The notes beneath the pieces were generated by a model, which saw only the letters and a list, made by a program, of their open reading frames with translations, searched no databases and was not told the origin of the DNA. DNA of 13,110 nucleotides from a virus. This document shows positions 1,059 through 13,060 of this stretch, piece after piece. Both the position numbers and the translations under genes were made by a program. Location of the stretch: UHGV virus genome UHGV-0162637; one strand, given 5' to 3'. Positions within the stretch are counted from its first letter, which is position 1. Each line of letters opens with the position of its first letter.

Positions 1059-1606
1059 TGGTTGCCTCCTTTGCGAAGCTGGTCGGCGAACAAACGTACA
1101 CTAGACGCTTCACTGCGTAGAAACTTAACGGCATAATCAAAACCACCTCGTTCTGCGTCGTCTGCTCCGTTGTCGAGGTTATCTGCGTACATCTCTACCC
1201 CCTGCGCCCGTACTTCAGCCAGGAAAGCATCGGTGGCTGGGGTTTCGATATCGTTAATTTCAGGAAGAATCTCTTCCCATGTGGCGATATCGCCATTCAA
1301 ATGCCATCCGGCAATTCCACTGGAGTTATCCGCAACACTGCGAACGGCTTCAATAGTTTCGAGCATTACCGCATTCTCCGCCGCAAGCGCCGAAAACTTC
1401 TCGTGTGCCAACTTAACAGCTGCATCAGCCTGCTTAATTGACTCAATCGCTCTCTGCTGGTCTTCGGACAGAGCCGAAATCTTGGCCTCCGCTTCAGCAA
1501 ATTTACGCACCAGATATTCAGCGTTTGTTTCGTTAACCTTTAAATCACTTGGGATGCATTTATCTTTCAGAAAACCATCCATCTCAATTAGTGACATTTG
1601 TTTCAT
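1055..1606 (-). CDS. Ea22-like phage protein (183 aa), function unknown
   Basis: ATG at 1606 with GGAGTGGG upstream; ATGA overlap with the stop of the upstream ORF. Size (552 nt) and position match lambda ea22 (recalled). Acidic, predicted coiled-coil-rich. Confidence 0.6.
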
Positions 1607-1767
1607 TTTTTCCCACTCCGCAACATCGCATTCAGATATTTGTTTTGATTTACTGACGGAAAAGAATTTCTCTTAAGCAATTCCTCTCTCGATGGCATTG
1701 GCTTTACGCGCTGGCGAATAATCATTTCTGCCGGAAGAATGCCGGGATTGTATGCAAGTCCTCTCAT
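1603..1767 (-). CDS. hypothetical small phage protein (54 aa)
   Basis: ATG at 1767 with GAGGAA 6 nt upstream, immediately after the TGA of the preceding gene; 3' end overlaps the Ea22-like start (ATGA). The longer 104-aa version in the ORF track overlaps the upstream gene in another frame and is unlikely. Confidence 0.4.
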
Positions 1768-1777
1768 GGTAAATTCC

Positions 1778-2071
1778 TCAGTCATTACTGATAGCGCCAT
1801 AGCGTGAGCGGTAATTACGCAGGCGCGGGTCAATTTCAGGGAAGTGGGTATATGTGGCTTTGCGGAATGGTCGGATTGATGTCTGGTAAATTCGCTCGCG
1901 TTCTTCTTTCTCTGCAAGCCATATACAGTGGCGAAATTCCTTTTCCTTTTTCGTTTCCTGCGGTAGCGACATTATCCGATCGTAGTTTTTTCTGAATTTA
2001 TCCAGCACCTCCGATACGGAATTGCCGGAACAGCGGCGCGGGTCATCCGCACCATACAGAGGCGCTGGCAT
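1778..2071 (-). CDS. hypothetical phage protein (97 aa); lies where P22 carries abc1/abc2, possibly Abc2-like (speculative)
   Basis: ATG at 2071 with AAGGA about 8 nt upstream, 23 nt after the SSB-like stop; the track ORF begins at a TTG further upstream. Position just downstream of erf and the 97-aa size resemble P22 abc2 (recalled, not verified). Confidence 0.5.
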
Positions 2072-2094
2072 AATGGAATCCTTATTTTGCAAAT

Positions 2095-2478
2095 CTAGAA
2101 GGGAATTGAATCGTCGTATTCAGGATGATTTTGATGATTGCTACTTTGCTGCTGTTGGCTGTTTCCTGAAGTTGCAAATCCAATCTTTGCATTCAGTAAT
2201 TCAAGATTGATTGATTGACCATTTTGCCCCTGATAAACATCAACCCTGATGTTTTCTCCGGTAATTTCAACAATGCCACCTTCAACAAGAACACTACGGT
2301 AGTAATCCGCTTGCGCTCCCGGCTTGGCAAATACAACGGCGCTGTAGTTTGTCCATTCTTTCTTTTTTGTCTGGCGATCGTAATACTGAACGCCAGCACG
2401 GATGTTGAATCCGATATTTTCCCCGGCCTGAAACTCTCTTGCGGGCTTGTTTAGTCTTACAGTAATCGAATGTGCCAT
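2095..2478 (-). CDS. ssb: single-stranded DNA-binding protein (SSB-like, OB fold, 127 aa)
   Basis: ATG at 2478 overlaps the erf stop (TAATG) and has AAGGAG upstream. The protein shows the SSB core pattern (EWTNYSAVVFAKPGAQADYY...VLVEGGIVEI), a Gln/Ser-rich linker and the acidic C-terminal tail DDSIPF (compare E. coli SSB DDDIPF). The 157-aa track ORF carries a non-coding N-terminal extension. Confidence 0.75.
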   Translation of the reverse strand: MAHSITVRLNKPAREFQAGENIGFNIRAGVQYYDRQTKKKEWTNYSAVVFAKPGAQADYYRSVLVEGGIVEITGENIRVDVYQGQNGQSINLELLNAKIGFATSGNSQQQQSSNHQNHPEYDDSIPF

Positions 2479-3083
2479 TAAGCAGCCGCTCCTTCTAATT
2501 CGTCTCGTCTGATGTTGTAAACGTCCTGCGCTTTGTGCTGCTCCGGTGTGCCTTCGAGCATCTTCCACGCTTTGGCGAACGCCTGTTTAAGCTCTTCTAC
2601 GGTGTTTTTCTGCATTGCTGCGTCAGTGAATGCTTTTAGAACCTGTTCAGGTGTAGGTGATGGTTTTGATTGCTTTGCTGCTGCGTTCTGCTGATGTTTA
2701 TGCTCGTCTGTATCTGCATCTTTCGCATCATCAATGCCGAACAAACCATTGAGGCAATACTTGCGTGCATAAGAGCTTGTGGCTCCCGTAACTTGTGCAG
2801 AATCCATTCCTTTCTTGCTTTCTTCCTCTCGTGCAAGAGCGGTTGCTGTATGACTGTTTTCGCCATCAGTAATAGTTGCCGTGGCTTTCACGTAATACCG
2901 TTCACCAATCAACACAACTTCATCGCTGATTGATAAAAACAGGCCATTCAGTAACGGCTTAACACCCTCAAGAATGTCTTCGCAGCTTCTGTATTTATAT
3001 TTGCCGAATGAGTTGTATTGATTCTTTGGCGCGTTCAGATTCTCCTGAATAGCTGCCAGTCTTGCGTAAAATTCTTTGCTCAT
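2478..3083 (-). CDS. erf: Erf (essential recombination function) single-strand annealing protein, P22 Erf family
   Basis: Translation from ATG 3083 (MSKEFYARLAAIQENLNAPKNQYNSFGKYKYRSCEDILEGVKPLL...) closely matches my recollection of P22 Erf. The track ORF starts at an upstream TTG; I trimmed to the first ATG. Confidence 0.85.
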   Translation of the reverse strand: MSKEFYARLAAIQENLNAPKNQYNSFGKYKYRSCEDILEGVKPLLNGLFLSISDEVVLIGERYYVKATATITDGENSHTATALAREEESKKGMDSAQVTGATSSYARKYCLNGLFGIDDAKDADTDEHKHQQNAAAKQSKPSPTPEQVLKAFTDAAMQKNTVEELKQAFAKAWKMLEGTPEQHKAQDVYNIRRDELEGAAA

Positions 3084-3172
3084 ATGATTGTTCTCAGAAT
3101 GGACATGGCCCAAGGAAATAACGCTGATTTAATACTTCAGTCTTTGCCGCATTTAAAAATACGCGAACACCT

Positions 3173-3343
3173 TCACGATCTCCCTTCTGGCGATACATTA
3201 ACGCCTGCTGAGTGTACATGCGTCTCTGTAACTTGCTCTCCTTCACTGTGGTTGAAAGTGACATGAATATCTCCTTCGTTACCGATTAAATCTTTCATCT
3301 GACGAATGAATTCTTCGTCTGACCAGTTATCTGTAAAACTCAT
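3173..3343 (-). CDS. small phage protein (56 aa) at the Kil/Arf position between cIII and erf
   Basis: ATG at 3343 overlaps the stop of the CIII-like gene (ATGA), as lambda kil overlaps cIII. Identity as Kil or Arf is positional only. Confidence 0.45.
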   Translation of the reverse strand: MSFTDNWSDEEFIRQMKDLIGNEGDIHVTFNHSEGEQVTETHVHSAGVNVSPEGRS

Positions 3344-3510
3344 GGACGGCCTTGTTGTTTCAAAATATCCCAAAGCTTTTCGAGCAAACTTTTCATTCTT
3401 GGTTGTTTAAAGTCTGCTCCGGTTAGAATGTTTTTTCGTGAATGCTGTACCGATAAAATCGGGTTGAAAGGGCGAACCGATGCCGCCCCTGCAATAGCGA
3501 ACTGTTGCAT
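3340..3510 (-). CDS. cIII: CIII-like protein (inhibitor of FtsH-mediated CII degradation), 56 aa
   Basis: ATG at 3510 with GGAG 7 nt upstream. N-terminus MQQFAIAG and the segment SLLEKLWDILKQQGRP resemble lambda CIII (MQYAIAGW..., ...RLIDILNQPGVP, recalled). The track ORF extension upstream runs through a terminator hairpin and is not coding. Confidence 0.65.
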   Translation of the reverse strand: MQQFAIAGAASVRPFNPILSVQHSRKNILTGADFKQPRMKSLLEKLWDILKQQGRP

Positions 3511-7217: not shown

Positions 7218-7379
7218 ATGACAAAACGTCGTAAGAAATACCAGGAAAAAGAAGAGATTCGACACCCTGATTCACCTGAGGGATTAGTGGTAGCCGCAGC
7301 AAATAACAGGGCGTTCGCAGAGCGCCTTGTTGGTGTTTACAGACTAGCCAAAGCAGGAGTGAAACATGGGCGTCGTTAA
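7218..7379 (+). CDS. hypothetical small basic protein (53 aa) between cII and the O-like gene
   Basis: ATG at 7218 preceded by ACAGGAG at 6 nt; product MTKRRKKYQEKEEIRHPDSPEGLV... . Its 3' end overlaps the O-like start by 14 nt. Below the ORF-track size cut-off. Confidence 0.4.
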   Translation: MTKRRKKYQEKEEIRHPDSPEGLVVAAANNRAFAERLVGVYRLAKAGVKHGRR

Positions 7380-8256
7380 GTTAGCTGATTACAGGCATAA
7401 CCCTGTACAACATCAGGAGGCATCCAGTATGGGGTATGTCTCTATACACCGCCAGTTTATGGACAGCAGGCTCTATAAGGACTCTCAGGCAGTACATCTT
7501 TGGCTTCACTTAATCCTCAAGGCTAATCACGAATCTACTGTCGTCAATACGGATATCGGTCCGATAACTGTTGATCGCGGTCAGATGATAACTGGACGCC
7601 CGTCGCTGGTCAGAGAAACATTCATTCCAGACAACAAAGTTCGGAGCTTATTACGGACTTTTGAGTCGAAAGGGATGCTTAATATTTGCTCGATGGGGAA
7701 GAAATTTAGCCTGTTTACAATTGTTAAATATGACGATTTTCAGGCAAAAAATTGTCCAACGGTTGTCCAACGATTGTCCAACGCAACCCCCAGTAATGGC
7801 GCGGCTCTCAGCGGAGATTGTCCAACGGTTGTCCAACGATTGTCCATAAACAATAATATAAATAATATCTCTAATACTGACGTATTAGAGAGTACCGCAG
7901 CAGACAAAAAGTCTGACAAGAAAAAACCTTCCGTTAGCTGTCAGGATGTTGTCGATGCTTACCACGAAATCCTTCCTGAAGCGCCAAGAATCCGCGCACT
8001 GAATGACAAGCGTAAAAACCAGATCCGAACGTTCTGGCGCAAAGCCGGAGTAATAACACGTCAACTTGACGGGCATGGGTTCACGATGCAGGACTGGAGA
8101 AATTATTTGAGCTACGTTGGCGAAAATTGCCGATGGATGTTCGAAGAGCGCCCAAACCATCAACGCGGAACCGTCTGGCACAAAAAGGGATTTGATTTCC
8201 TGCTTAACGATAATACCTACCTGAAAGTTCGTGAGGGTGAACACGATGACCGATAA
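7366..8256 (+). CDS. O: replication initiator protein (lambda O-like), origin iterons embedded in the gene
   Basis: Position after cII; the iteron cluster in mid-gene is translated as the repeat CPTVVQRLSN. AGGAG SD before ATG 7366; an alternative in-frame ATG at 7429 has an AGGAGG SD, so the true start may be 7429. Confidence 0.8.
   Translation: MGVVKLADYRHNPVQHQEASSMGYVSIHRQFMDSRLYKDSQAVHLWLHLILKANHESTVVNTDIGPITVDRGQMITGRPSLVRETFIPDNKVRSLLRTFESKGMLNICSMGKKFSLFTIVKYDDFQAKNCPTVVQRLSNATPSNGAALSGDCPTVVQRLSINNNINNISNTDVLESTAADKKSDKKKPSVSCQDVVDAYHEILPEAPRIRALNDKRKNQIRTFWRKAGVITRQLDGHGFTMQDWRNYLSYVGENCRWMFEERPNHQRGTVWHKKGFDFLLNDNTYLKVREGEHDDR
7753..7880. repeat. lambdoid replication origin: six iterons plus AT-rich region
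   Basis: TTGTCCAACG at 7753, 7764 and 7775, then again at 7818 and 7829, with a variant TTGTCCATAA at 7840 (11-bp periodicity, two clusters 33 bp apart), followed by an AT-rich stretch 7850-7880. Same architecture as lambda ori inside O. Confidence 0.8.
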
Positions 8257-8788
8257 TTTTTATGCGCCGCCCCATAGCATCGAGGCAGAGCAGGCGGTGA
8301 TTGGTGGATTGCTTCTGGATGATGACAGCAGTGAGCGCGTCCAGAAAGTTCTGGCGATGCTGAAGCCTGATTCATTTTACAGCCGACCACACAAAATCCT
8401 TTTCGAAGAAATAACCAGAATGCACCGGGAGCAAAAGCCAGTAGATGGCCTGACGCTTTTCGATGAACTGGAGCGTAAATCGTTAACGGTGTCTGTTGGC
8501 GGTTTTGCTTATATCGCTGAGATCGCAAAGAACACGCCAAGCGCAGCAAACATCGTTGCCTATGCAATGCAGGTTCGTGAAACCGCAATGGAACGCTACG
8601 CCATCAACCGCATGACTGAAGCGACGGAATTGCTCTATCTCACAGTAAAAGCCGCCGGTGTGTGGGCGGGTGGCATTGAAACACCTTCGGTGGAAACTCC
8701 ATCGGAAGGTTCAAAATTTTTTGGTTTTGATATGGATAACGAATTCATCAGTGGTTTTGATGTAGGAGCATGGGGAAAATTACTCTGA
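8246..8788 (+). CDS. DnaB-family replicative helicase, N-terminal domain only (truncated, likely non-functional fragment)
   Basis: ATG 8246 with GAGGG SD, overlapping the O stop. Residues PPHSIEAEQAVIGGLLLD...SVGGFAYIAEIAKNTPSAANIVAYA align with the E. coli DnaB N-terminal domain (recalled). Similarity ends after about 140 aa and the ORF stops at 181 aa; the RecA-like ATPase domain is absent. Confidence 0.7.
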   Translation: MTDNFYAPPHSIEAEQAVIGGLLLDDDSSERVQKVLAMLKPDSFYSRPHKILFEEITRMHREQKPVDGLTLFDELERKSLTVSVGGFAYIAEIAKNTPSAANIVAYAMQVRETAMERYAINRMTEATELLYLTVKAAGVWAGGIETPSVETPSEGSKFFGFDMDNEFISGFDVGAWGKLL

Positions 8789-9690
8789 TGGCTAAAAATG
8801 AATTTAAACCATTTGCAACTGGCTCTGGTGCTAACGTAACAACTCAGACAGACTGGGAATCATTACCTGTCCTATCTGCTGGCTTTACATCGGGGAAGGC
8901 ATCAAGTGCTCAGGTGAACAAAGGTCTGAGGCAAGGAACGGCAATGGCGGCTGCTGTGGGGCAGTTTATCGCAGATAATACCAGTGAGGATGTGAAAGAT
9001 AATGGTGATATTGCGGGGCTCTCTGCGCAATTAGCGAGTGCGGTAGAGCAGGCTGCAACAGGACGGCTTATTGGTGTTCGCACAATAACGACATCCGGGA
9101 CTTATACGCCAACCCCAGGAACGAAAAGCATTATTGTTGAAGTCCAAGGCGCAGGCGGAGGAGGGGGCGGGGTTGGTACAACTAACTCTACCAGTGTTGC
9201 AGTTGGGTGTGGAGGGGGAGGTGGCGCCTACGCTAAATCCCGTATCACCAATTTAGACTCAGCATATACTGTAACCATTGGAGCTGGTGGAGCTGGTGGG
9301 GTTAACGGTAATGGAGGAAACGGTGGTGGATCTTCTTTCGGATCTATAACCGCTGGCGGTGGATTTGGTGGTGGTTCAGGAAATGGGGTACCTCCTATTA
9401 TTCAGAACTCACCAGGAATTCCTATAGCATCCGGAGGTAATATTTTAAATCTCTCTGGAGAGAATCCAACTATTGGCATGGCTATATCGACTAGCTCTAT
9501 CATCTCTGGTGGCGGAGGTAATAGTCCATTAGGTGTGGGTGGTAATCCACACGGCTCAGCGGGTATCGGTGTATTGCCGACTGGTTTCGGGGCTGGGGGC
9601 GGTGGGGCTAACGCATATGTGAATAATGCCACCCAATATAACGGAGCCGCCGGTGGTAATGGTATTGTTCTTATCTGGGAGTATGCATGA
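8788..9690 (+). CDS. glycine-rich protein (about 300 aa), possibly phage tail-fibre-like; function unknown
   Basis: Long intact ORF; ATG 8788 overlaps the stop of the helicase fragment (TGATG), with an alternative in-frame ATG at 8770. Non-glycine-rich N-terminal region of about 130 aa, then poly-Gly and GxGG tracts to the C-terminus ...GIVLIWEYA. Family assignment is tentative. Confidence 0.65.
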   Translation: MAKNEFKPFATGSGANVTTQTDWESLPVLSAGFTSGKASSAQVNKGLRQGTAMAAAVGQFIADNTSEDVKDNGDIAGLSAQLASAVEQAATGRLIGVRTITTSGTYTPTPGTKSIIVEVQGAGGGGGGVGTTNSTSVAVGCGGGGGAYAKSRITNLDSAYTVTIGAGGAGGVNGNGGNGGGSSFGSITAGGGFGGGSGNGVPPIIQNSPGIPIASGGNILNLSGENPTIGMAISTSSIISGGGGNSPLGVGGNPHGSAGIGVLPTGFGAGGGGANAYVNNATQYNGAAGGNGIVLIWEYA

Positions 9691-9866
9691 TGAAATATGC
9701 ATTGGTAGAAAATGATGTTGTGATTAACGTTATATTATGGAACGGCGATGGAAAACAATACGATGATTATCTCTGTATAAAGCTTGACGACAATAGCGTT
9801 GTTGGTGTTGGGTATACATATTCAGAGGGTAGGTTTTTGCCCCCTGAATATATTGATGAATTATAG
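9687..9866 (+). CDS. hypothetical small protein (59 aa) coupled to the glycine-rich gene
   Basis: ATG overlaps the stop of the glycine-rich ORF (ATGATGA); product MMKYALVENDVVINVILWNGDGKQYDDYLCIKLDDNSVVGVGYTYSEGRFLPPEYIDEL. Its 3' end overlaps the convergent acyltransferase stop by 6 nt. Below the ORF-track size cut-off. Confidence 0.35.
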   Translation: MMKYALVENDVVINVILWNGDGKQYDDYLCIKLDDNSVVGVGYTYSEGRFLPPEYIDEL

Positions 9867-10955
9867 TGGTGAAATATTTTTACTCATTATTAGTCTCCCT
9901 GTTCTTATAAATTTCTTTTCTACATATCTATATGATAAATCAGAAAAGACAACTAGCAAAAGAATGAAAGCGAAGAAGTATATAACTTTGTTTTCGTAAA
10001 TGACGGTGTTAAGGGAGAGTTTGTTCAAAACCTCCCTTGTTACATGTAGTAATGGTAAATGGCAAAGATAAATGCTATAAGATCTATCCCCAATCCAGTC
10101 CAGCATTTTATATGCTGGATTATCTTTTTTATCTACCACACCACCACTAATAAAACATAGAAATAATAATGCACCAGCAAAACCAATCGCAGGTAATGTC
10201 AATCTATAGTTAAAGTGCTGAGGGGCAACGAGTAAAACAAAAATGCAAACTATAATAAAAAATAGTCTTGTGCATTTATTGCTTACATAACACTTGCTTC
10301 CAGTTATGAATATAATTGCTCCCAGAAAGAATGCTTGTGGTCTAATCCACCAACCAATGGATTGATAGTACATTTGAGTTACTGGCAGGAAAGATGCAAT
10401 AGCTACTATGAATATGAAAATAATCGTCAGATTTTTCCTGTTAAAGAGCAGCATGATTGCCGCAATTATAGCATACAGTTGCCATTCCAAAGATAGAGAC
10501 CAGGTCACCGCATTCATTTGGTCACAATCATTTGCTGTTACTGCGCACCTATAGAAGTGGATATTAGAATAACCAAGTAGGGATGTATATAACGTAGTGA
10601 ATGATTTAAGAGGTGAAACACCCCAAGAAGGTTGCATAAAATAAGAGATTATTATACAGATGGTGCCCCATACAAGTAAGCATGGGGCTAGCCTAAATAT
10701 TCTTTTAGATAAAAATAATAAAAATATTTTAGTTGTTCTGCCGGTTTTTTTTATTTCCCCAGTTAAGCTTTTAGCCATCAAATATCCAGATATAGCCAAA
10801 AATATATCAACTCCAGCCCAATAATTAACGTAATTAAAACTGCTCAAATACCAATCTGGCGAAGGTAATCTATTTCTATAATGTTGTAGAATAACCATTA
10901 TTATGGCTACCGCCCTTAGCGCTTGAATGTCAAGGTTTTTATTATTTAGGGTCAT
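9861..10955 (-). CDS. acyltransferase family 3 integral membrane protein (O-antigen acetylase-like, Oac/OafA type)
   Basis: 364-aa polytopic membrane protein with the conserved N-terminal motif LDIQALRAVAIIMVILQHY and many hydrophobic segments. Visibly AT-rich compared with flanking DNA. Lies at the prophage/host boundary where P22- and Sf6-like phages carry O-antigen modification genes (recalled). Confidence 0.85.
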   Translation of the reverse strand: MTLNNKNLDIQALRAVAIIMVILQHYRNRLPSPDWYLSSFNYVNYWAGVDIFLAISGYLMAKSLTGEIKKTGRTTKIFLLFLSKRIFRLAPCLLVWGTICIIISYFMQPSWGVSPLKSFTTLYTSLLGYSNIHFYRCAVTANDCDQMNAVTWSLSLEWQLYAIIAAIMLLFNRKNLTIIFIFIVAIASFLPVTQMYYQSIGWWIRPQAFFLGAIIFITGSKCYVSNKCTRLFFIIVCIFVLLVAPQHFNYRLTLPAIGFAGALLFLCFISGGVVDKKDNPAYKMLDWIGDRSYSIYLCHLPLLHVTREVLNKLSLNTVIYENKVIYFFAFILLLVVFSDLSYRYVEKKFIRTGRLIMSKNISPL

Positions 10956-11887: not shown

Positions 11888-13060
11888 TTGCTGTTGAAAC
11901 GCCGTCTTATTATTGCTGCTTCTTTGTTCGTTTTTAACTTATCGTCTGGTTTTGCGGCGGAAAACATTCCTTTTTCACCTCAGCCTCCAGAGATTCATGC
12001 CGGGTCCTGGGTATTGATGGATTACACCACCGGTCAGATCCTCACCGCGGTTAATGAGCATCAACAGCGCAATCCCGCCAGCCTGACAAAGCTGATGACG
12101 GGTTATGTCGTGGATCGCGCTATCGATAGTCATCGCATTACGCCAGACGATATTGTCACCGTGGGGCGCGATGCGTGGGCGAAAGATAATCCGGTGTTTG
12201 TCGGTTCTTCACTGATGTTTTTGAAAGAGGGCGATCGCGTATCGGTACGTGATTTAAGCCGTGGTTTAATTGTGGATTCTGGAAATGACGCTTGTGTTGC
12301 TCTGGCTGACTATATTGCCGGTGGGCAACGGCAGTTTGTTGAAATGATGAACAACTATGCCGAGAAGCTGCATCTCAAGGATACGCATTTTGAAACAGTG
12401 CATGGTCTGGATGCACCTGGCCAGCATAGCTCGGCTTATGATTTAGCTGTGCTTTCTCGCGCTATCATCCACGGCGAGCCCGAGTTTTATCATATGTACA
12501 GTGAGAAAAGTCTCACCTGGAACGGTATCACCCAGCAAAACCGTAACGGGTTGTTGTGGGATAAAACCATGAATGTTGACGGCCTGAAAACGGGTCATAC
12601 TTCTGGTGCCGGGTTTAATCTCATTGCTTCGGCTGTAGATGGGCAGCGTCGTCTCATTGCAGTGGTAATGGGGGCTGACAGTGCAAAAGGTCGTGAGGAA
12701 GAGGCAAGAAAATTACTGCGTTGGGGGCAACAAAACTTTACTACGGTGCAAATTTTGCACCGTGGGAAAAAGGTCGGAACGGAACGCATCTGGTATGGCG
12801 ATAAAGAAAATATCGACCTGGGAACGGAACAAGAGTTCTGGATGGTGCTACCGAAAGCCGAAATTCCACATATCAAAGCCAAATATACCCTTGATGGTAA
12901 AGAGCTCACCGCGCCAATTAGCGCCCATCAGCGGGTAGGGGAAATTGAACTTTACGACCGTGATAAACAGGTGGCGCACTGGCCGCTGGTTACCCTGGAA
13001 TCTGTCGGGGAAGGCGGCATGTTTTCCCGCCTGAGTGATTATTTCCACCATAAGGCCTGA
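11888..13060 (+). CDS. dacD: D-alanyl-D-alanine carboxypeptidase DacD (penicillin-binding protein 6b)
   Basis: 390-aa product with signal peptide and the SxxK (ASLTK), SGN and KTG motifs of class-C low-molecular-weight PBPs; matches E. coli DacD as recalled. The start is a TTG at 11888, so the exact start is uncertain. Confidence 0.9.
   Translation: MLLKRRLIIAASLFVFNLSSGFAAENIPFSPQPPEIHAGSWVLMDYTTGQILTAVNEHQQRNPASLTKLMTGYVVDRAIDSHRITPDDIVTVGRDAWAKDNPVFVGSSLMFLKEGDRVSVRDLSRGLIVDSGNDACVALADYIAGGQRQFVEMMNNYAEKLHLKDTHFETVHGLDAPGQHSSAYDLAVLSRAIIHGEPEFYHMYSEKSLTWNGITQQNRNGLLWDKTMNVDGLKTGHTSGAGFNLIASAVDGQRRLIAVVMGADSAKGREEEARKLLRWGQQNFTTVQILHRGKKVGTERIWYGDKENIDLGTEQEFWMVLPKAEIPHIKAKYTLDGKELTAPISAHQRVGEIELYDRDKQVAHWPLVTLESVGEGGMFSRLSDYFHHKA

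Follow-up and report, generated by a model that had tools for sequence, protein, structure and literature searches.

[quoted passage not shown]

A 127-residue protein is encoded between erf and abc2 in the window, by which we mean the whole 13,110-nucleotide stretch of viral DNA (UHGV-0162637) analysed here. Judging from its sequence and its predicted fold, the protein most likely belongs to the bacterial SSB lineage, as a phage representative that has diverged strongly. We consider it quite probable that it acts inside the early-left (PL) erf-ssb-abc2 module, where it would serve recombination and its acidic C-terminal tip would recruit Erf.

The SSB identity of this gene and its erf/abc2 module are already known, having been reported in 2025 on the basis of a predicted fold. 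In a survey of 325 lambdoid phages (Genome Research 2025; PMC12315714), an SSB-like structure was predicted for HK97 gp40 despite identity of 15% or less to a canonical phage SSB, the protein was named SSB-1b, and 27 phages were found to carry a module type composed of an anti-RecBCD function, an SSB and a strand-annealing protein, without a nuclease. The window protein is 94% identical to HK97 gp40 over 127 residues (E=1e-80), and this homology, together with its location in an early-left Rec module beside the gene for a single-strand annealing protein (SSAP), places it by sequence in the SSB-1b family. It is 100% identical to HK633_036, a CDS of phage HK633 listed as 'hypothetical protein' in a record that notes similarity to HK97 Gp40. 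Family, erf/abc2 position and predicted SSB-like fold are all shared with HK97 gp40 and nothing essential differs, although the deposited C-terminus of gp40 reads DDSNPILI and not DDSIPF. A search of the survey's main text found no reference to a tail described as acidic or C-terminal, and domains for interaction with partners were left 'beyond the scope' (PMC12315714). What might repay further work is only the relationship between this tip and the C-terminal domain (CTD) of the annealing protein; both the portability of the CTD and the tracking of its second helix with the SSB tip are, to our knowledge, new.

Organization and distribution of the erf-ssb-abc2 module

Both the erf gene and the second open reading frame are encoded on the minus strand, and their coordinates agree exactly with those of a first-pass annotation of this DNA (Table 1). 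The ssb ATG shares one base with the erf TAA stop codon, and a GAAGGAG Shine-Dalgarno sequence is located ∼10 nt upstream of it. HK633, HK97 and PhiR12_1 are annotated with an identical 1-nt overlap and also have the gene order erf-ssb-abc2. This arrangement indicates that ssb is translationally coupled to erf through TAATG and is part of a conserved recombination module. The abc2 gene starts 23 nt past the ssb stop codon, and its product, which matches Pfam Anti-RecBCD_p2 at E=3.4e-63, shares 93% identity with P22 Abc2; a DUF2737 gene and Ead/Ea22-type genes follow downstream. Promoter and terminator scans of positions 1500–3500 gave counts at chance level, with nothing above chance between erf, ssb and abc2. 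The O-like and DnaB-like replication genes sit apart from ssb, at 7366–8788. The prophage in the window is a remnant in which the DnaB-like helicase ORF retains no more than its N-terminal domain, and resemblance to other prophages ends at 8638, beyond which are a glycine-rich ORF, an acyltransferase and the chromosomal gene dacD.

Table 1. Features of the erf-ssb-abc2 region, in window coordinates.
Feature	Coordinates	Strand	Basis
erf, single-strand annealing protein, 201 aa	2478..3083	-	Pfam ERF, phrog_155, P22 Erf identity
Erf N-terminal annealing core (about aa 1–123)	2715..3083	-	Pfam match, AF2 high-pLDDT alpha/beta domain
Erf C-terminal domain, three helices (aa 145–201)	2481..2651	-	AF2 model; portable module
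Divergent phage SSB (HK97 gp40 / SSB-1b family; probable), 127 aa + stop	2095..2478	-	phrog_44, hhalign, AF2, Foldseek, PMC12315714
SSB OB-fold domain (predicted; aa 1–103)	2170..2478	-	AF2, Foldseek, hhalign
SSB short disordered Q/N/S-rich linker (aa 104–119)	2122..2169	-	Low pLDDT; variability in homologues
SSB acidic C-terminal tip PEYDDSIPF (aa 120–127, with P119)	2098..2121	-	Sequence
TAATG stop/start overlap, erf to ssb	2476..2480	-	Direct sequence reading
abc2, anti-RecBCD protein 2, 97 aa	1778..2071	-	Pfam Anti-RecBCD_p2; P22 Abc2 identity

Phage P22 has the same gene order, with erf overlapping the middle gene in the same way, and its Erf is 74% identical to the protein described here, but the middle gene of P22 is abc1 (94 aa), whose product shows no similarity to the 127-residue protein. 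We rejected the possibility that the latter is an Abc1 homologue, as BLASTP gave no alignment at E≤100 and the two have only their position in common. DNA homology with P22 breaks off at window position 2607 (about erf codon 159) and is regained just ahead of abc2, and therefore the exchanged cassette consists of the distal part of the Erf CTD and the middle gene. It had been proposed in the first-pass annotation that the OB-fold gene lies where P22 has abc1 and abc2. The abc1 slot is indeed occupied by ssb, but abc2 is retained directly downstream, and the unit is therefore erf-ssb-abc2 and not an erf-ssb pair that replaces both genes. The further proposal of a self-contained recombination module is correct as to a conserved recombination module, but the module is not self-contained because it has no nuclease and, with Abc2 present, depends on host RecBCD. 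Given the abc2 correction, we regard the earlier interpretation as largely right, and as supported in part.

A homologue search with the 127-residue protein yielded 318 clusters, and the 1.7-kb erf-ssb-abc2 stretch is covered to at least 80% in 563 of 5426 complete E. coli genomes (∼10%). The ssb gene itself is thus an ordinary and common prophage gene; the practical gain is better annotation, because PGAP still labels it hypothetical in E. coli genomes, as do most phage records. The homologues, the frequency in E. coli genomes, the conservation of the tip and the close match to HK633 and HK97 indicate that the ORF is genuine and not there by chance. In viral contigs, the Erf-related loci that we found were 99–100% identical only.

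SSB-1b homologues in other taxa keep similar company. All ten Enterobacterales genome loci for which upstream DNA was available (10 of 11 loci) have the SSB-1b gene directly after an SSAP gene, and the further loci that were fetched are arranged likewise. The two genes overlap by 1 to 16 nt in Intestinirhabdus, Cedecea, Serratia, Rahnella, Raoultella, Chimaeribacter and metagenomic contigs. In two MAGs they are separated by one to three others. The identity of the partner varies, with a divergent ERF-domain protein (27–33% identical) in Rahnella and related loci, a Rad52_Rad22-domain protein in Yersinia prophages, and the order RecT-exonuclease-SSB in Vibrio phages, and SSB-1b accompanies SSAPs of four different cores across genera. 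The pairing suggested in the first-pass annotation is not specific to Erf, as members of this SSB family are found behind Rad52-type genes in Yersinia and, in Vibrio phages, behind RecT-exonuclease genes. In mEp044 the same slot is filled by a different SSB, such that Erf is followed by a canonical PF00436 SSB (139 aa, ending DFDDSIPF) and then by an Abc2-like gene.

Fold, linker and acidic tip of the 127-residue protein

Curated family models do not recognize the 127-residue protein (MAHSITVRL...NHPEYDDSIPF). A Pfam scan at E≤0.1 matched no family, PF00436 and DUF669 included, and TIGR00621 scored 15.8 bits, below its cut-off of 53.95. Searches of PDB sequences, using phmmer with the single sequence and hmmsearch with a 41-sequence profile, returned nothing significant. 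We accordingly rejected membership of the curated families PF00436 and TIGR00621, since the protein is below the sequence thresholds of both, and also rejected an HK620-type SSB-2, which would be expected to match DUF669. The protein does match phrog_44 ('single strand DNA binding protein'; E=9e-28), and an hhalign comparison of the family profile with E. coli SSB gave E=1.7e-5 at a probability of 78%. The alignment to SSB profiles that had been suggested as a check in the first-pass annotation thus succeeds with phrog_44 and hhalign but misses the Pfam and TIGR00621 thresholds. The hhalign alignment places Y32, W42, F50 and Y82 opposite W40, W54, F60 and W88, which are the known ssDNA-stacking residues of E. 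coli SSB, and the aromatic positions of the two proteins appear to be equivalent. Across 41 homologues neither W42 nor F50 varies, Y32 is conserved in at least 90%, and the family alignment has 22 invariant columns in all.

An AF2 monomer model built on the 41-homologue alignment has a mean pLDDT of 83 and consists of a beta-barrel with one helix at residues 55–63. The first 103 residues are confidently predicted (block-mean pLDDT 81–95), with disorder from about residue 104 to residue 127 and pLDDT below 50 at 108–120. When the model was compared with the PDB using Foldseek, all 36 matches at E≤0.001, and all 50 of the matches listed, were bacterial or mitochondrial SSBs or PriB, albeit with modest TM-scores of 0.35–0.5 and rmsd of 6–7 Å relative to solved SSBs, with which the protein shares an identity of about 15%. 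In the viral structure library BFVD, every named fold match is a phage SSB. The model therefore predicts an OB fold of the SSB/PriB type (a barrel of five strands, the third and fourth being linked by a helix), in agreement with the compact OB-fold protein of the first-pass annotation, which had named the absence of an OB fold from a structure prediction as grounds for refutation. PriB is an SSB-derived OB dimer that lacks an acidic tail and is encoded in the rpsF-priB-rpsR-rplI operon. We rejected the identification of the window protein as PriB, as it has a linker, an IPF tip and the setting of a phage recombination operon.

The C-terminal part of the protein is a disordered linker followed by an acidic tip, which in the family ends in (I/P)PF. 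Its last seven residues, YDDSIPF, are identical at five of seven positions to the FDDDIPF of E. coli SSB, as expected from the near-canonical tail noted in the first-pass annotation. An acidic stretch with x-P-[FY] at the C-terminus is present in 81 of 105 full-length cluster representatives; the residue preceding the proline in these 81 is I, P, V or L in 79 and A in two, and an aromatic residue is found 7–8 positions from the end in 70 of those 79. The consensus in most homologues is [FYW]-D/E-D/E-x-[IP]-P-F, and the Yersinia and Edwardsiella homologues end in PPMDFDDDIPF, the C-terminal residues of E. coli SSB itself, although some distant SSB-1b family members are without an x-P-F tip. In contrast, the linker is hypervariable in both sequence and length, and the homologues range from 123 to 215 aa in total. 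This pattern of conservation indicates that the SSB tail is real and under selection.

The 127-residue protein thus shares with E. coli SSB an OB fold (as predicted), equivalent aromatic residues, a disordered linker and an acidic IPF tip, but it is considerably smaller, with a linker of ∼16 residues as opposed to ∼55 in the 178-residue E. coli protein. With its 16-residue linker, its near-host tip and its coupling to erf, it offers a minimal system for studying how SSAPs gain access to SSB-coated ssDNA. Recruitment of the recombinase by the tip and interference of phage SSBs with the host SSB interaction network are two questions that it could be used to address.

Erf, its C-terminal domain and the SSB tip

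The 201-residue neighbour is assigned as Erf from its sequence, with a match to Pfam ERF (PF04404) over residues 5–143 (E=2.8e-44; 151 bits against a cut-off of 25), a match to phrog_155, and homology to P22 Erf, which rises to about 93% identity in the N-terminal core. The AF2 model of Erf contains a structured N-terminal domain of helices and three strands (residues 1–115), a disordered stretch at 125–141 (pLDDT below 50) and a CTD of three helices at 145–158, 162–175 and 181–198 (pLDDT 75–86). The CTD is ∼55 aa long and has the pattern L..FT..A...EL..a[FY]....L....K..VY.IR..EL. Domains of this type are not confined to ERF cores such as P22 Erf, and are found also on the RecT cores of phiEt88 and of the phiV10 RecE-RecT fusion, on Rad52_Rad22 cores in Yersinia, and on the AAA_24/Sak4-like core of Erwinia EhrS_59. 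A homologue search with the Erf CTD alone returned gene fragments only. We rejected a strict dependence in either direction: the CTD is not restricted to SSAPs beside a phage SSB, as P22 Erf, phiEt88 RecT, phiV10 RecE-RecT and EhrS_59 have none adjacent and the phages P22, phiEt88 and phiV10 encode no SSB themselves, and SSB-1b is not always paired with this CTD, as the Erf-like protein of Edwardsiella GF-2 has a different C-terminus.

Two characterized systems suggest what the CTD and the tip might do. Red-beta has the same SSAP architecture as Erf, with an annealing core, a flexible linker and a small three-helix CTD, a likeness that we treat as an analogy and not as demonstrated homology, and its CTD binds the 9-residue tail of E. 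coli SSB (PMC6393309). The last seven residues of SSB have been reported to determine its compatibility with SSAPs (bioRxiv 10.1101/2020.04.14.041095). The best functional precedent for the 127-residue protein is the SSB-Sak4 pair of HK620, which has the same slot order (recombinase, SSB, abc2) and an SSB with an acidic tail ending in PPF, although that SSB is of the unrelated DUF669 'SSB-2' family and its partner is the RecA-like Sak4 and not Erf. The HK620 SSB (HkaK) stimulates Sak4 in vivo and in vitro only with an intact C-terminal NDYPPF, and HkaK and its N4 gp45-like relatives are without homology to bacterial SSBs (Hutinet et al., PMC5928155). An hhalign comparison of the Erf CTD with the Red-beta CTD gave a probability of 0.1%, with no detectable sequence similarity, and no PDB entry matched the full-length Erf model below E=0.02 in Foldseek. 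Because neither a similarity to the Red-beta CTD nor a PDB fold match was found, the case for a contact between the CTD and the SSB tail is built on analogy and on co-variation.

We compared CTDs and tips at 16 loci where an SSAP gene precedes one for SSB-1b, and the type of CTD helix 2 and the type of SSB tip were perfectly associated. Helix 2 has the form A[FY]xWTxxKL in all seven loci with PPF or APF tips, and in all nine with IPF or IPY tips it is of a type other than WT; seven of these nine have an AFaKAWkMLeG-like helix, from which the two Yersinia Rad52 partners differ. Mean identities within and between tip types are 53% and 39% for the CTD, as compared with 55% and 56% for the SSAP core and 77% and 77% for the OB domain, such that neither the core nor the OB domain partitions by tip type. 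The SSAP cores are shuffled relative to the block formed by the CTD and SSB; loci L090 and L114, for example, have the same CTD and SSB types and unrelated cores. This pattern fits a contact between CTD and tip but is not proof of it. No more than about four independent lineages stand behind the PPF loci, linkage is a confounding factor because the CTD and ssb are physically adjacent, and neither sequence nor fold searches connected the CTD with that of Red-beta.

A broader reading, which we advance tentatively and regard as somewhat doubtful, is that the CTD is a portable SSB-tail-binding adaptor carried by at least four unrelated cores, with helix 2 co-evolving with the SSB tip and the two being shuffled as a unit. 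The CTD and SSB of Enterobacterales phages could then perhaps constitute a private and exchangeable specificity pair, serving Erf, RecT, Rad52/Sak and RecA-like Sak4 cores alike, and the recombination breakpoints of the CTD-SSB unit might fall in the SSAP linker or in the CTD; we view each of these corollaries as possible but rather less than probable. The co-variation, if confirmed, would give a handle on the specificity of SSAPs for SSBs, a matter that bears on recombineering in new hosts, and if the CTD is truly an adaptor, then swapping it jointly with the SSB would be a rational route to portable annealing proteins.

Proposed role and alternative explanations

The explanation that best fits these observations is that the 127-residue protein serves as the SSB of a phage recombination pathway, which would operate as follows. 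Upon induction or infection, an N-antiterminated PL transcript would express the three genes, with erf and ssb coupled. Abc2, for which redirection of host RecBCD is established in P22 (Murphy 2000, cited in PMC5928155; PMC9836394), would presumably make RecBCD generate ssDNA by resection, given its 93% identity to the P22 protein. The OB domain would coat the resected ssDNA by means of the aromatics equivalent to those of E. coli SSB, as its predicted fold and the residue equivalence suggest. The disordered linker would present the YDDSIPF tip, and the tip would recruit Erf, most likely through the three-helix CTD. We infer this step because the Red-beta CTD binds the E. coli SSB tail and because HK620 Sak4 depends on the tail of its own SSB. 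The recruited Erf would displace the SSB and anneal complementary strands. The same phage SSB may also engage host proteins that bind the SSB tail, since its tip is almost identical to that of the host. The competition for host SSB partners that the first-pass annotation had envisaged is plausible because of this resemblance of the tips.

Such interactions could in principle be the purpose of the protein and not a by-product, with the host-like tip titrating or redirecting clients of the SSB tail such as ExoI, RecQ, RecO, PriA and the chi subunit. We think this unlikely, and equally unlikely that the protein, as a host-takeover function in the abc1 slot, protects phage recombination intermediates or disturbs host repair by such means. 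The near-host tip (YDDSIPF here, PPMDFDDDIPF in Yersinia and Edwardsiella) and the very short linker would suit a decoy, and the slot is that of P22 abc1, an accessory gene that aids recombination. However, the stacking aromatics and the OB core are strongly conserved and would be needless in a pure tail decoy, and the gene is constantly linked to that of an SSAP and not to anti-host genes; it is this conservation of the DNA-binding core and the constancy of the linkage that lead us to disfavour such a role. Moreover, the HK620 SSB acts positively on its own recombinase, and whether the tip is IPF or PPF varies with the CTD of the phage SSAP and not with the host. A role in the phage replisome, to which the adjacency of erf would be incidental, is improbable to much the same degree or a little more so. 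Many phages do encode replication SSBs, the tip of SSB contacts replisome and primosome proteins as well, and PriB is among the Foldseek matches, but the ssb gene is in the PL recombination cluster, coupled to erf and well away from the replication genes, and SSB-1b travels with SSAPs of four different cores across genera. Furthermore, an SSB gene is missing from 177 of the 246 lambdoid phages that infect Enterobacterales and carry Rec modules (PMC12315714), so replication in these evidently uses the host SSB, and it is the gene position and the lack of SSB in most lambdoid phages that argue against a replicative function.

Recombination within the erf-ssb-abc2 module is thus the role that we favour. 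The window prophage is cut off, with a truncated helicase gene and an end to prophage similarity at 8638, and it might be asked whether ssb is an inert and functionless leftover in a decaying prophage. We consider this very improbable, and rule against it because the ORF is 100% identical to a gene of the viable phage HK633. The ORF is also intact, as are the neighbouring erf and abc2 genes, and purifying selection on the family is clear across genera.

The Erf C-terminal domain and the SSB tip

The Erf protein ends in a C-terminal domain (CTD) of three predicted helices. Pfam has no model of this domain, and no resemblance to the CTD of Red-beta could be detected. In phages of Enterobacterales the domain is a portable one, attached to recombinase cores of the ERF, RecT, Rad52_Rad22 and AAA_24 (Sak4-like) types. 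Comparison of 16 loci (the window, L085, L088-L092, L104-L106, L108, L109, L111, L112, L114 and L115) shows a perfect association of the helix-2 motif in the CTD of the single-strand annealing protein (SSAP) with the tip type of the adjacent SSB, in a small sample for which linkage is a confound. The tips are IPF/IPY in nine of these loci and PPF/APF in the other seven, and among them no split by tip type is seen in the SSAP core or in the OB domain of the SSB.

A search of PDB sequences with the CTD profile matched 24 residues (ERQAKAVQVYNSRKSELDA) of the receptor-binding coiled coil of colicins E2/E3/E9 (E=3e-4). This likeness could be due to chance between helical segments, or to an old exchange.

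Genes of the recombination module

The first-pass annotation implied that abc2 is absent from the window; an intact copy is in fact present, beginning 23 nt past the end of the SSB gene. Phage mEp044 shares the three-gene layout of the window, but its SSB is of the canonical PF00436 type, only 139 aa long, with a poly-Q linker and the C-terminal sequence PPMDFDDSIPF; one slot therefore holds two unrelated-looking SSB types. The DDSIPF tip is common to both and is phage-typical, with a serine replacing the third aspartate of the host.

The family prototype, HK97 gene 40, ends in the deposited sequence with ...VYDDSNPILI rather than ...YDDSIPF. Small indels close to the 3' end account for the difference; they could be an error of early sequencing or could mark a genuine variant that has no tail. 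The 'Gp40' label is also attached to the erf product in this record. In distant relatives from MAGs, other genes lie between Erf and the SSB homologue: a PolB-exonuclease-like gene in a Coxiellaceae MAG, whose SSB homologue is without the IPF tip, and a Gp157-family gene plus a CsrA-like ORF in a gammaproteobacterial MAG.

Both small ORFs upstream of erf match PHROGs labelled 'recombinase' (phrog_1723, phrog_2123), and the 56-aa ORF shows no similarity to P22 Arf.

Coordinates of features in the window and in comparison loci
Feature	Locus	Position	Strand
abc2 (anti-RecBCD protein 2), intact, 93% identical to P22 Abc2	window	1778-2071	-
Erf CTD, last ~55 residues	window	2481-2651	-
Segment matching colicins, positions 30-53 of CTD profile A3	window	about 2487-2558	-
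Two small overlapping ORFs, arf/kil position just upstream of erf	window	3094-3264; 3173-3373	-
DnaB-like helicase ORF, N-terminal domain only, 185 aa	window	about 8231-8788	
Glycine-rich ORF	window	8770-9690	
Acyl_transf_3 gene	window	9861-10955	-
dacD, chromosomal	window	11888-13060	
CTD	L091/L092	3834-3998	
CTD	L096	2498-2662	
CTD	L097	2501-2665	
CTD	L098	2495-2668	
mEp044 three-gene stretch	L099	2030-3384	
HK97 gene 40, as deposited	L103 (AF069529.1)	1668-2057	
MAG loci, other genes between Erf and SSB homologue	L093; L094	2729-4510; 2500-4429	

The prophage remnant

The prophage in the window is a remnant. Its likeness to other prophages ends at 8638, and beyond this junction region come the glycine-rich ORF, the Acyl_transf_3 gene and the chromosomal dacD. 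No late genes are present within the window.
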